A stretch of 64,000 nt of DNA from IMG/VR virus record IMGVR_UViG_3300036762_000188, one strand, 5' to 3'. Positions 3,107 to 37,973 of the stretch are shown here, piece after piece (the first letter of the stretch is position 1; each line of letters begins with the position of its first letter). Made by a program: the position numbers and the translations under genes. The notes below the pieces were generated by a model, which saw nothing but the letters and a program-made list of their open reading frames with translations, was not told the DNA's origin and ran no database searches. This stretch comes from a virus. Taxonomy: Duplodnaviria > Caudoviricetes.

Positions 3107-3140
3107 ACTTACCATCACCCAGCTGTTATAAGTATAATGT

Positions 3141-3212
3141 AATGCAATAGCTCAATGGTTAGAGCATAAGACGGTAGTCTTAGTGTTGTTGGTTCGAGTC
3201 CAACTTGCAGGG
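3141..3212 (+). ncRNA. Atypical tRNA-like element (pseudo-tRNA)
   Basis: Canonical D arm (TAGCTCAATGGTTAGAGC) and T arm (GTTGG-TTCGAGT-CCAAC), but a 6-nt anticodon loop, only a 5-bp acceptor stem and no CCA. Confidence 0.55.
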
Positions 3213-3438
3213 GCCGCAAGGCCCACTACTTTTAGGTGAGCAGACTTAAATGACAGGGTTGGCATCCCGAGTCGCCCGGTAGCTTAGACCCTCGCGTTTT
3301 ACAGGACTAAAGATCCTTAAGGCCAGGTAGCGTTCCGGTGGAAATATTGCCAGGAAGACTACTCAATTTTAGAGATGAGATTAATAGAGGAATATGAGAC
3401 ACCTAGGTTGACCTAGGTGTCTCTTTAAGAGGAATAGC

Positions 3439-5623: not shown

Positions 5624-5862
5624 AGTGTTATTACTGCTCAAAGGAATTCCCTCTGGAGGAAGTTCGTCCGTACGGTCTGGGTGGCTCCTATATATGCTAT
5701 CCATGTATGGTATCAGACACTCTCAGAGAGAAACTGGCTATTGAAGAGGTTACTAAACTCTTAAGTAAAATTAAGATTCCTGTAGTAACTAGCACGGGTA
5801 TAAAAGACCTTAGTGAGCTTGAAGATCAGGATGTATTACCGATCCTCTTTACTAAGGTTTAA
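5620..5862 (+). CDS. Small Zn-ribbon protein
   Basis: CYYC...RPYG..G..ICYPC; GGAGG RBS before the ATG at 5620. Confidence 0.6.
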   Translation: MKCYYCSKEFPLEEVRPYGLGGSYICYPCMVSDTLREKLAIEEVTKLLSKIKIPVVTSTGIKDLSELEDQDVLPILFTKV

Positions 5863-5865
5863 AGA

Positions 5866-6180
5866 ATTGCTGTAATCCCTTGAAGGATTAACTATGGCGG
5901 ACGCGGGTTCGAATCCCGCCAGCTCCACCAAATACGTCTTAGTGGTTTACCCCCAATGGCTGCTAGGGCGTATTTGATGGGGCTGTAATGGTTTCGACGT
6001 TGTAGTGAGGCTAGAGAGGCAGCACGAGAGGTGACCTAGCGTATATAGGCACAAACTATCTAAATGCAGATGCATATGAGATGAAAGCAGCAGCTTAAAC
6101 TGCGCTTTCCCAGGACGGCGGTCGCCTACGGGCCCTGGTCATCAAAGACCGCCCTCGAATTCGAATAGTGTTGCGACTAT
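5866..6180 (+). ncRNA. ssrA: Circularly permuted (two-piece) tmRNA, tag ADAYEMKAAA
   Basis: 3' acceptor piece GGACGCGGGTTCGAATCCCGCCAGCTCCACCA ends at 5930; intervening hairpin; 5' piece GGGGCTGTAATGGTTTCGAC starts at 5979; G3.U70 Ala identity pair; tag ORF 6066-6098 ends in AAA-stop. Outer ends are approximate. Confidence 0.9.
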
Positions 6181-34031: not shown

Positions 34032-34337
34032 CAACTAGATTTAGGTGTAAGTTCTGGGAGGTAGGCTTAGAAGCAGCCATCCTTTAAAGAGTAGGGTCTT
34101 TGCTCCTTGTGACAAAATAGCAACTCGAAGTACTTGAATTAGAGTTGTGAAAGTTGAACTAACCTCTATCCACTGATCACGGTAAGTTAGTTAAACGAGT
34201 TGCGTGGAGGTATAGTACCAAAGAGCTAGTAAGAACCTGTGAAATGACATAGGCATAGCGTGAGCGGTAGAAGTCATACCCGCCTAGCCGCCCTTTTGGT
34301 GTAACAACACACCAGAGCTTACACCTAAATCTAGTTG
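34032..34337 (+). ncRNA. ncRNA containing a split mimic of 23S rRNA H43-H44 (L11-binding GTPase-associated centre)
   Basis: 26-bp terminal stem; GGAGGTAGGCTTAGAAGCAGCCATCCTTTAAAGAGT at 34057-34092 and GGTGTAACAACACACCAG at 34298-34315. Confidence 0.8.
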
Positions 34338-36108: not shown

Positions 36109-37137
36109 ATGCATACACTTAAACTTTTGAAGGAATCAGGCTTAGACGGTCTATACCGTCTGGGCATCAGGCCTGTTAAGAGAGACGGGCTTATACTCTT
36201 GAATTATAGTCAAGTGGAAAGTCCTAAGTTTCACCCCGTAGTAAATGAATGTCGTAGCCTACTCTTAACAGAGGACTTACAATTAGTAAGCCGCAGCTTC
36301 GACAGATTTTATAATCATAGTCAAGTAGACTCTTCAGAGGATATATCTGATTGTGATGTTTTTGAGAAGATGGATGGTTCTCTTCTGAATATGTACTACC
36401 ATAACGGATGGAAGTATAGATTAAGTGGATCCCTGGATCTTAACCATGGAGTATGGGATCCTACCGGTCTAGACAGTACTACATGGAAAGACTACGTCAA
36501 TAAATGTATGGCTGACGCGCCTCTGCATCTGGCTAATGATCGTGATTGCACTTATATATTTGAGATAGTCGGTAAGAGTAATAAGATAGTAGTGCAGTAC
36601 CCTGAAGCTGATTATAGGCTACTAGCTGTACGGCATAGAGACGGGCGTTATATGCCTATACCTGAGGGTTTTAAACGCCCGCGCAGTTATAAATTCAGTA
36701 CATTAACGGAATGTGTACAGGCTGCTAACTCATTACCTAACCTAGAAGAAGGCTTCGTTATATATAAAGACGGCCCGATTTTAAAGGTCAAAAGTGACGT
36801 CTATATAAAGAGTCATCATATGCGCTTCAATGATATAAGCGCTCGTAGGGTGATGGACATGGTTGTAGAAGGTGATTATGATGAGTACCTCTCGGTATTC
36901 GCAGAACATAAACCTATGTTCGAGCCTTTTATACAAGCTGTAGAGCGTATGAGGCTTGATATGATCAGGCTTAAAGCGGAGAGTGAAGGTTATACTACTC
37001 AGGAATTGAGTAGAATGTATTCTGGAGTAGAACTTTCCATGATATGGTGGGTTAGAAGTGATCGCTCTATATATGAGAATCTAAAAAGTTCAAAGCCTAA
37101 TGCGCGCATTCGTTTATTTAAACATTACATGGAGTAG
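36109..37137 (+). CDS. rnlA: RNA ligase 1 (T4 RnlA family)
   Basis: LNYSQ..ECRSL..SRSFDRFYN, FEKMDGS (motif I), TYIFE, NKIVV.Y, EEGFV, LKVKS. Confidence 0.88.
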   Translation: MHTLKLLKESGLDGLYRLGIRPVKRDGLILLNYSQVESPKFHPVVNECRSLLLTEDLQLVSRSFDRFYNHSQVDSSEDISDCDVFEKMDGSLLNMYYHNGWKYRLSGSLDLNHGVWDPTGLDSTTWKDYVNKCMADAPLHLANDRDCTYIFEIVGKSNKIVVQYPEADYRLLAVRHRDGRYMPIPEGFKRPRSYKFSTLTECVQAANSLPNLEEGFVIYKDGPILKVKSDVYIKSHHMRFNDISARRVMDMVVEGDYDEYLSVFAEHKPMFEPFIQAVERMRLDMIRLKAESEGYTTQELSRMYSGVELSMIWWVRSDRSIYENLKSSKPNARIRLFKHYME

Positions 37138-37139
37138 AT

Positions 37140-37973
37140 ATGATAACATTAACGGTAGGGATACCGGGTAGCGGTAAGAGCACTTGGGCTAAAAAACAAG
37201 ATGCAGTAGAAGTTAACAGGGATATGATACGTAAATCACTATTCTGTAATGGTGATACAGACGCCATGTTTGAGTATCGGTTCACTTCAGATAAAGAGGG
37301 TATAGTCACTGCCACCTCTGTAGCGGCAGTATCTAGTGCAGTATCTGTCGGTAGGGATGTGATAGTGTCGGATACTAATTTAGTAGCCTCGACTAGGGAT
37401 AGGTATAAACTGTTGGCTAAAAACCTGGGAGTAGATTATAAGGAAGTAGTCTTCCCTGACATCGATAAGGCGTTTAAACGTAACCTACAACGCTCTATCC
37501 CGGTACCTATGCAGGTGATGTTGAATATGTATAGGCTATTCCGCCAGTATGAAGGAAGGACACCTTATACACCTGGAGCAGATCCTTGTATCATCTGTGA
37601 TCTGGACGGTACTCTGTATGACATGAACGGTCGCAGTCCTTACGCTGACGATGTGTCAGGTGATTTAGTAAACGAGGTGATACTGAACTTACTTCGTAAG
37701 GTAGAATACCCTATCATCCTCATGTCTGGTCGTAAGGAATCGGCCCGGGCTAGCACCGAGGCTAAGCTGGCAGAGGATGGTGTAGAATATGAGCGACTCA
37801 TAATGCGTGCTACTAGTGATAATAGGCCTGATTATATAGTTAAGGAAGATCTTTTTGATACGCACCTGTCTGATAGGGATGTATGGTTTATCTTAGACGA
37901 CAGGGCTCAGGTAGTTAACATGTGGAGGGCTAAGGGGCTTACATGCTTTCAAGTCGCAGATGGATATTTCTGA
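37140..37973 (+). CDS. pseT: Polynucleotide 5'-kinase/3'-phosphatase
   Basis: GIPGSGKSTWA, NRD.IR, SDTNL; DLDGT, SGR, DNRPD..VK, LDDR.QVV.MWR..GL.CFQVA.G.F. Confidence 0.92.
   Translation: MITLTVGIPGSGKSTWAKKQDAVEVNRDMIRKSLFCNGDTDAMFEYRFTSDKEGIVTATSVAAVSSAVSVGRDVIVSDTNLVASTRDRYKLLAKNLGVDYKEVVFPDIDKAFKRNLQRSIPVPMQVMLNMYRLFRQYEGRTPYTPGADPCIICDLDGTLYDMNGRSPYADDVSGDLVNEVILNLLRKVEYPIILMSGRKESARASTEAKLAEDGVEYERLIMRATSDNRPDYIVKEDLFDTHLSDRDVWFILDDRAQVVNMWRAKGLTCFQVADGYF

Follow-up and report, generated by a model that had tools for sequence, protein, structure and literature searches.

A family of structured phage RNAs carrying a copy of the uL11-binding domain of 23S rRNA interrupted by an inserted domain

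The GTPase-associated centre (GAC) of bacterial 23S rRNA consists of the end of helix 42 (H42) together with H43 and H44 (positions 1051-1108) and is well known as a fragment of about 58 nt that binds the ribosomal protein uL11 and thiostrepton. The C-terminal domain of uL11 binds tightly to the H43/H44 substructure (PMC3592554), and when RelA is bound, the elbow of the A/R-tRNA stacks on A1067 (PMC5829649). Imitations of rRNA outside the ribosome are described as well. Autoregulatory ribosomal-protein leaders, such as the L10 leader or the L1 site in the leader of the L11 operon, lie outside the ribosome and mimic a site at which rRNA binds a protein. Furthermore, synthetic sarcin-ricin loop (SRL) RNAs and thiostrepton-domain RNAs, prepared as 'ribosome-in-pieces' oligoribonucleotides, bind EF-G or IF2 in vitro (PMC3496166). 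The subject of this work is a phage-encoded, non-coding RNA of 306 nt, both ends of which rebuild the uL11-binding piece of 23S rRNA, a site that the translation GTPases also contact. It is located at positions 34032-34337 (+) of a stretch of 64,000 nt (in the following the window) from the IMG/VR virus record IMGVR_UViG_3300036762_000188 (Duplodnaviria; Caudoviricetes).

The bacterial 23S GAC is the closest known object to this RNA. Both share the helices, the 1067 and 1095 loops, the U1082-A1086 turn, the G1056.A1103 pair and the core bases, and about 52 nt are nearly identical. The phage RNA differs in that it is a stand-alone gene outside any rRNA gene, possesses its own stem in place of H42 and carries a domain of 205 nt with a UUUG linker between 1090 and 1091; in the family to which it belongs U1101 is replaced by A1101, and A1067 and G1068 are less conserved than in rRNA. 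In contrast to the phage RNA, the ribosomal-protein leaders are cis-acting elements of cellular mRNAs with a loose likeness to rRNA, which regulate the synthesis of their own protein, whereas the phage RNA is a near-exact rRNA copy, is usually situated between tRNA genes, mostly without an adjoining ORF, and matches no Rfam leader. The 'ribosome-in-pieces' RNAs are likewise isolated rRNA domains acting as free ligands, which shows that recognition off the ribosome is feasible. However, they are laboratory constructs, while the phage RNA is a natural, selected gene whose insert in the window contains no conserved SRL. A last group comprises tmRNA, the Y-RNA-like YrlA and small ribozymes in phage tRNA clusters. 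They occupy the same niche on the same strand and are probably also released by tRNA processing, but are unrelated to the phage RNA in sequence and structure and include no mimic of an rRNA domain.

The elements of the RNA are given below, with rRNA-like positions numbered according to E. coli 23S rRNA and the basis of each assignment in brackets.

34032..34057 (+): terminal stem, 5' half, which replaces H42 and whose final two bases are 1054-1055 (sequence; minimum free energy and centroid folds)
34056..34092 (+): 5' GAC block, 1054-1090 (partial match to the Rfam large-subunit rRNA (LSU) model, conservation, pair statistics)
34059-34083 (+): H43 with the A1067 loop, A1067 being 34069 (inside the 5' GAC block)
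within 34056..34092 (+): U1082-A1086 turn, then G1087-A1088-G1089-U1090 (5' GAC block)
34093..34096 (+): basal helix of the insert (P-i), 5' strand AGGG (pairs with CCCU at 34291-34294)
34097..34290 (+): accessory domain, a multi-helix insert (RNAalifold with the relative L059)
34120-34126/34142-34148 and 34159-34163/34186-34190 (+): examples of insert helices (inside the accessory domain)
about 34218-34248 (+): block of 31 nt identical in L059 (inside the accessory domain)
34291..34294 (+): P-i, 3' strand CCCU (pairing with 34093-34096, family covariation)
34295..34298 (+): UUUG linker from the insert to H44, a family signature (end-of-insert counts in 149 members)
34299..34313 (+): 3' GAC block, 1091-1105, with the H44 hairpin, the A1095 loop (A1095 being 34303), A1101, C1102 and A1103 (sequence, family pair counts)
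34312..34337 (+): terminal stem, 3' half (sequence; minimum free energy and centroid folds)

The terminal stem of 26 bp consists of 25 Watson-Crick pairs and one U.G wobble, whose counterpart on the opposite strand would be a mismatch of A and C. All six pairs of H43 (1057-1059/1079-1081 and 1062-1064/1074-1076) are present in the window, and the 9-nt loop with A1067, UUAGAAGCA, is the same as in E. coli. In H44, G1087-C1102 is a G-C pair, 1091-1092/1099-1100 are G-C and U-A, and the hexaloop GUAACA with A1095 fits the motif GUAAYA. The set of tertiary-core elements is complete (U1060/A1088, G1071, C1072, A1085, the U1082-A1086 turn and G1056.A1103). Four pairs differ from E. coli, namely 1053-1106 (U-A), 1054-1105 (G-C), 1058-1080 (G-C) and 1092-1099 (U-A). 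The last of these is a double change from the C-G pair found in 148 of the 149 family members and is unique among them. An earlier note, made from the letters of the window alone, had described the 26-bp stem, the two GAC halves with preserved A1067 and A1095 loops, and compensatory changes in the closing helix and H44; each of these elements was found again at 34032-34337, the compensatory changes being the U-A, G-C and U-A pairs at 1053-1106, 1054-1105 and 1092-1099.

Folding of the whole RNA gives -102.8 kcal/mol, with z = -5.4 against 100 shuffles. The Rfam archaeal LSU model matches 34056-34106 (H43/H44, model positions 1181-1232) with 24 bits and an E-value of 3.6e-5, well under the gathering score of 50, as is expected of a piece of 51 nt. 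No open reading frame (ORF) of at least 40 amino acids overlaps the RNA on either strand.

The layout is not confined to the window. With blastn against GenBank phages the H43 block was found in unannotated DNA of the Pseudomonas phages pf16, Milchi, Astolliot and UNO-G1W1, of Aeromonas phage 4_4572 and of the Xanthomonas jumbo phage XacN1. Each of these loci has a terminal stem, unrelated in sequence, that encloses the 5' block, a variable insert and a 3' block of the CCCUUUGGCGUA..AGCACACC type. Wider searches added GAP32, CBB, Serratia BF, several Erwinia phages, XbC2, Kaldavass, Yersinia fHe-Yen9-04 and Acinetobacter ME3. Altogether, pattern scans and BLAST yielded 149 distinct relatives that share the split layout, from IMG/VR, from contigs of metagenome-assembled genomes (MAGs) and from cultured phages.

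A degenerate pattern of the 5' block matched 65 IMG/VR contigs, 63 of which leave the rRNA sequence right after AAAGA; the two exceptions are a true rRNA (L027) and a copy that has no insert (L053). This insert-free copy, L053:1597-1650 (IMGVR_UViG_3300045988_112927), is a GAC mimic of about 54 nt with C1090/G1101 and lies 13 nt from a tRNA gene. A pattern of the 3' block which is unable to match true rRNA gave at least 120 matches. In GTDB genomes the 3' pattern was matched 114 times, 39 times with an upstream 5' block and 75 times without. The 39 members lie nearly all on MAG contigs, often with tRNA arrays, and the 75 remaining matches are fewer than the about 280 chance matches calculated for 16 fixed bases in 596 Gb. 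A cellular, non-viral distribution was rejected because the GTDB matches are either at chance level or phage sequences binned into MAGs, and the family is essentially viral.

The RNA of the window contains all elements of the family, that is the 5' block, P-i after U1090, the UUUG linker, the 3' block with A1101 and the terminal stem, and it can be aligned with 45 relatives over its whole length. Its only close relative is L059, located on a 241-kb IMG/VR contig, with 86 % identity; beyond L059 no further relatives of the window's own insert were found. In Rfam 15 no family reached its gathering score, and up to an E-value of 10 the locus gave the partial LSU match only; six relatives gave no Rfam match. 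A description of such an RNA was not found in the searchable full-text literature, with subscription-only literature outside the search. These structured phage RNAs form a large family that stands well apart from the RNA families described so far.

Selection on the GAC fold is evident from the family. In the 149 members the GAC helices are paired in 97-100 %, the H43 pairs in 99-100 %, and five of the six H43 pairs show compensatory changes on both sides. Up to five pair types occur at 1058-1080 (GC 60, UA 46, AU 32, CG 7), three at 1082-1086 (UA 95, CG 37, AU 13), while 1057-1081 alternates between AU and CG and 1054-1105 between GC, AU and UA. G1056.A1103 is non-canonical across the family, as it is in rRNA. 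In a MAFFT alignment of 46 sequences with the structure specified by hand, 87.8 % of the cells are paired compared to 66.1 % in shuffles. The covariation score is 0.578 against 0.164 in shuffled alignments (reached by 0 of 500) and falls to 0.10-0.18 if the partners are slid by one to three columns. The terminal stem exists in nearly all members with unrelated sequences and six pair types per position; in L059 it is kept by compensatory and wobble changes. Taken together, the data strongly support a copy of the uL11-binding GAC domain which stands alone, is under selection and is split by an insert.

These data also bear on the simplest alternative, according to which the segment is rRNA debris, either a captured 23S fragment in decay or a chimeric assembly with host rRNA reads. 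The near identity of about 52 nt and the LSU match over 51 nt would fit such an origin. On the other hand, 149 distinct sequences share one insertion point although they come from unrelated phages with different hosts, and the helices covary. A1101, the UUUG linker and P-i differ from host rRNA, and the terminal stems do not have the sequence of H42. Contiguity with 23S rRNA fails in the window, where insert and linker split 1090 from 1091 and the flanks are phage ORFs. The RNA is present as one copy in a complete virus genome of 148,929 bp that has direct terminal repeats, a GC content of 44.5 %, 14 tRNAs and one permuted tmRNA. In addition, a comparison of 48 inserts with Salmonella 23S rRNA by blastn-short gave 38 weak matches, compared to 19-36 with shuffled sequences, and other rRNA pieces in the insert were rejected. 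Debris or chimera is thus refuted by family recurrence, covariation, the complete single-copy genome and the dissimilarity of the inserts to 23S rRNA, and its remaining probability is negligible. The earlier note had argued for selection on structure rather than decay and had looked to homologues with conserved loops and covarying stems, and to the exclusion of a chimera, for a decision; the 149 relatives, the covariation and the family-specific differences from rRNA bear the argument out, and the complete genome with its terminal repeats and the layout shared by the 149 sequences speak against the chimera.

Which property of the fold is under selection can be judged from the 5' blocks of 100 relatives retrieved by the 3' block alone, among the matches listed, and therefore an unbiased set. 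U1060, A1088, G1071, C1072, A1085, G1087 and C1079 are conserved in 99-100 % of them. We take these bases to be the tertiary core of the GAC crystal structures, such as those reportedly described by Conn and by Wimberly in 1999. The solvent-exposed, factor-contacting A1067 is conserved in 88 %, compared to 96-100 % for the folding core, and G1068 in 76 %. In the set of 149 members, A1095 is found in 145, a position which the search patterns partly constrain, and 1096-1097 are the most variable positions of the H44 loop. Since the core is conserved above the exposed loop, selection seems to act mainly on the fold, and because the C-terminal domain of uL11 binds the H43/H44 substructure tightly, uL11 binding is a plausible object of this selection. 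The pattern favours the fold together with uL11 binding as the selected property rather than a faithful docking of factors.

In every case the insert begins immediately behind U1090 with a helix of its own, P-i, whose four pairs are formed in 90 % of the cells of the 46-sequence alignment and show double changes at all four positions; the first pair is A-U in the window and G-C in L059. It ends with TTT in 146 of 149 members (CTTT 79, TTTT 46, ATTT 17, GTTT 4), and the G of the linker precedes G1091 in 143. U1090 is found in 100 % of the members, and position 1101, a U in bacterial rRNA, is A in 98 % (G in the pf16 type). The insert-free L053 has C/G and E. coli A/U at 1090/1101, and these identities fit a pair 1090-1101 that flanks the junction. 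The insert thus probably forms a three-way junction in H44 between 1090 and 1091, beside this pair. Insert length varies between 28 and 368 nt in the 3'-anchored set, and the insert sequences are mostly unrelated. Between window and L059, RNAalifold predicts 85 pairs, nine of them with double compensatory changes and several of these within the insert.

A sub-domain beside the 3' strand of P-i recurs in 19 of the 50 members listed as a short covarying stem around ACC-(CCG-GNRA-CGG)-UAAG. Its fuller form, AAGU-N6-[3-bp covarying stem]-ACC-(CCG-GNRA-CGG)-UAAG-[stem]-GAA, is found for example in L001:800-880, L004, L010, L028, L039 and L063, and the window carries a diverged version (GGC-AUAGC-GUGA-GCGGU-AGAA-GUC). 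The sub-domain has no match in Rfam. The insertion of about 200 nt which the earlier note had seen as unrelated and hairpin-rich is accordingly a structured insert of 205 nt (34093-34297); it is not unrelated filler, as an insert with a covarying P-i is the norm of the family.

Whether the insert or the GAC carries the function is the question raised by a second alternative, in which the GAC fold is a stabilising, nuclease-resistant clamp protected by uL11 and the real function resides in the variable insert as a small RNA, an aptamer or a protein-binding domain. The compensatory changes between window and L059 speak for a structured and selected insert, and the covarying basal helix and the ACC-hairpin-UAAG sub-domain recur in many members. 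However, inserts of such different lengths and largely unrelated sequence, the existence of the insert-free L053 and a GAC that is the only universally conserved part, far beyond the needs of a generic clamp, make this explanation clearly improbable. As L053 lacks an insert, the insert is dispensable for the core function of the family, and in view of such rare members it appears to be accessory.

Several candidates for a function of the insert were rejected. A general SRL copy is not indicated, because seven of 48 inserts match the SRL core with at most three errors compared to 2.2 in shuffles, an insufficient enrichment, and a hairpin AGUA-N-GNRA-N-GAA/GAC conserved between window and L059 was not found. 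The sole clean example of an SRL architecture among the inserts, with a bulged-G motif and a GNRA loop, is the hairpin GCAU-AGUAC-GGGA-GGAA-AUGC about 225 nt into the 312-nt insert of L020 (IMGVR_UViG_3300007354_000004). Antisense targets of the insert within the phage genome did not exceed chance. The 12-mer AGGTATAGTACC at 34208-34219 of the window has five exact copies in the 149-kb genome, 0.02 being expected, and its 10-mer core has 38 copies genome-wide on both strands with at most one mismatch. It is not conserved in L059, and a promoter inside the insert was rejected since the genomic copies have no common upstream context.

The 26-bp inverted repeat at the ends might also be read as the ends of a transposon, making the locus a miniature mobile element, or the insert as a self-splicing intron between rRNA-like exons, and HNH endonuclease genes indeed lie close to some family members. 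The U.G wobble, however, suits RNA pairing and not the identity of DNA repeats, and the length of the terminal stem runs continuously from 3 to 30 bp across the family. The flanks contain no target-site duplication, each genome has one copy, and no group I or group II intron or ribozyme model matched at E-values up to 10. A mobile element or intron therefore has hardly any probability.

Within the phage genomes the RNA often lies near tRNA genes. The 1-kb surroundings of family members contain 313 tRNA genes, every one encoded on the strand of the RNA and none on the opposite strand. Of 140 evaluable members, 62 have a tRNA at a distance of up to 50 nt, frequently 1-14 nt from the stem, and 81 have one within 300 nt. 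The window RNA lies outside any array, about 10 kb away from the nearest tRNA, and shares the + strand with all 15 tRNA and tmRNA genes of its genome. Terminal stems of at least 19 bp exist in nine members (30, 30, 30, 26 in the window, 24, 22, 20, 19 and 19 bp). All nine are without a tRNA within 300 nt, whereas stems of this length are absent from the 81 tRNA-adjacent members (hypergeometric p of about 3e-4; Fisher p = 0.006 for stems of at least 14 bp). A perfect duplex of two turns is a classical substrate of RNase III, by which 23S rRNA is excised in the same way. The restriction of long stems to tRNA-distant copies is the ground on which RNase III excision from mRNA is proposed for them, and it suggests that long-stem copies such as that of the window are cut in this manner. 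Copies in tRNA arrays are presumably released by 5' and 3' processing of the tRNAs.

A further observation on RNA ends concerns GAP32, CBB, Serratia BF and the Erwinia phages, a jumbo-phage group in which the RNA begins a few bases past the stop codon of a coding sequence, a U run follows the terminal stem and the region is unannotated in almost all records. In Cronobacter phage GAP32 the RNA is L130:1052-1312, corresponding to 289510-289770. The terminal stem of GAP32-type jumbo phages may double as an intrinsic terminator.

The surroundings of the RNA in the window led to a further alternative, a cis-acting, leader-like element that senses free uL11 and controls the downstream small ORFs. 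The RNA is embedded in a string of small ORFs, all on the + strand, and neither a sigma-70-like promoter nor a + strand terminator was predicted around it. Against this stand the members with a tRNA within 300 nt (81 of 140, 62 of these within 50 nt), in which there is no ORF to regulate; moreover, a conserved downstream gene and an Rfam leader match are both missing. Such a cis element is very improbable.

A gene for a partner protein was not found either. Homologues of uL11, bL12, uL10 or RelA/SpoT are absent from the complete phage genome. All-against-all clustering of 1575 flanking ORFs revealed no neighbour gene shared beyond close relatives, by which a dedicated partner protein encoded beside the RNA was rejected. 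It follows that a protein partner would be host-encoded or an unrecognised phage protein.

On this basis we consider an off-ribosome mimic of the GAC that binds host uL11 to be, on balance, a probable function, judged from fold and conservation, while any single downstream effect of such binding is put forward with much less confidence. According to the proposed mechanism, the RNA would be transcribed together with the surrounding + strand genes, and that of the window would be excised by host RNase III at the 26-bp duplex, given that no adjoining tRNAs set its ends. The ends fold as a self-closed GAC consisting of the end of H42, H43 and H44. The folded RNA would then bind host uL11, whose C-terminal domain recognises this tertiary fold, and would imitate the stalk base off the ribosome. 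From the conserved fold, binding of thiostrepton would be predicted as well. RelA activation requires uL11, as is known from the relC phenotype. In a first version the RNA would take uL11 from an exchangeable pool and so weaken the uL11-dependent activation of RelA. In a second version the GAC-uL11 surface would serve as a decoy or pseudo-substrate that catches a factor which normally docks at the GAC or attacks it. The more specific proposal of a free 'stalk-base' particle, loaded with uL11 and produced by two routes of biogenesis, which would trap a ribosome-docking defence effector or sensor or strip uL11 from ribosomes so that RelA could not set off the stringent response, is tentative and somewhat doubtful. 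If it were true, the stalk-base decoy would be the first viral mimic of a functional centre of rRNA.

Several points weigh against this picture. A simple decoy competes with tens of thousands of ribosomes, and in quantitative terms it could achieve little without a very high abundance of the RNA; the objection would be avoided by a ligand that prefers the uL11-free or free-standing GAC. P-i, the UUUG linker and the recurrent sub-domain are conserved, and a pure decoy model leaves them unexplained. About 10 % of the members alter A1067 or A1095, and hence faithful docking of factors is not universally required. As to biogenesis, tRNA-distant members are mostly short-stemmed too, with a median of 8 bp, so that RNase III can be neither a general route nor the only alternative one.

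A more specific form of this idea regards the RNA as a protective decoy or pseudo-substrate against a host defence or a competitor that attacks the GAC, for instance an ADP-ribosyltransferase, a nuclease or a thiopeptide-like ligand. The toxin Tre23, which ADP-ribosylates H44 at nucleotides 1095-1098, proves that the GAC is a real toxin target (PMC8661411), and the variable positions 1096-1097 of the family fall inside this modified segment. Defence nucleases that cut rRNA and tRNA exist as well, such as the HEPN nuclease of Retron-Kva2 (bioRxiv 10.64898/2026.07.14.738597). The location of the family among phage tRNA genes would agree with such a role, and RNA-repair genes are found nearby in two cases. 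At 36109-37973 (+) of the window, 1.8 kb downstream of the RNA, an Rnl1-type RNA ligase (PF09511) is directly followed by a polynucleotide kinase-phosphatase with a PNKP HAD domain and a P-loop kinase, an Rnl1-Pnkp combination that corresponds to the T4-like tRNA-repair pair, and in XacN1 a 2'-5' RNA ligase gene is situated directly upstream of the RNA. These associations are suggestive but anecdotal, as no neighbour is conserved across the family. In addition, a literature search on rRNA-targeting defences found no GAC-specific anti-phage system, and stoichiometric decoys stop catalytic toxins poorly. Such a protective role is therefore rather unlikely.

Should the mimic of the GAC hold, a gene whose product copies one of the ribosome's most conserved functional sites would be carried by large phages of numerous hosts, among them Pseudomonas, Xanthomonas, Aeromonas, Cronobacter, Serratia, Erwinia, Pectobacterium, Acinetobacter and a large number of uncultured lineages. 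It would form a new class beside the known RNA mimics, that is tRNA-like structures, 6S RNA and ribosomal-protein leaders, and would mean that viruses have a new means of acting on translation, on the stringent response or on ribosome-directed immunity. Since the family is common, has sharp limits and includes cultured phages, the question is directly testable. A GAC that folds on its own and tolerates an insertion at one point of H44 also offers a natural design for RNA scaffolds.

Two further RNA genes of the window are worth mentioning. A tmRNA of the permuted two-piece type lies in the first tRNA cluster at 5807-6155 (+), matches the Rfam model tmRNA_permuted with 109.6 bits and encodes the tag ADAYEMKAAA according to ARAGORN; this hints at a host lineage with a two-piece tmRNA. 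At 3140-3215 (+) a tRNA-like gene reaches 44.9 bits in Rfam over model positions 3-68 and is reported by ARAGORN as 'tRNA-???', with an abnormal anticodon loop and a 2-base anticodon.

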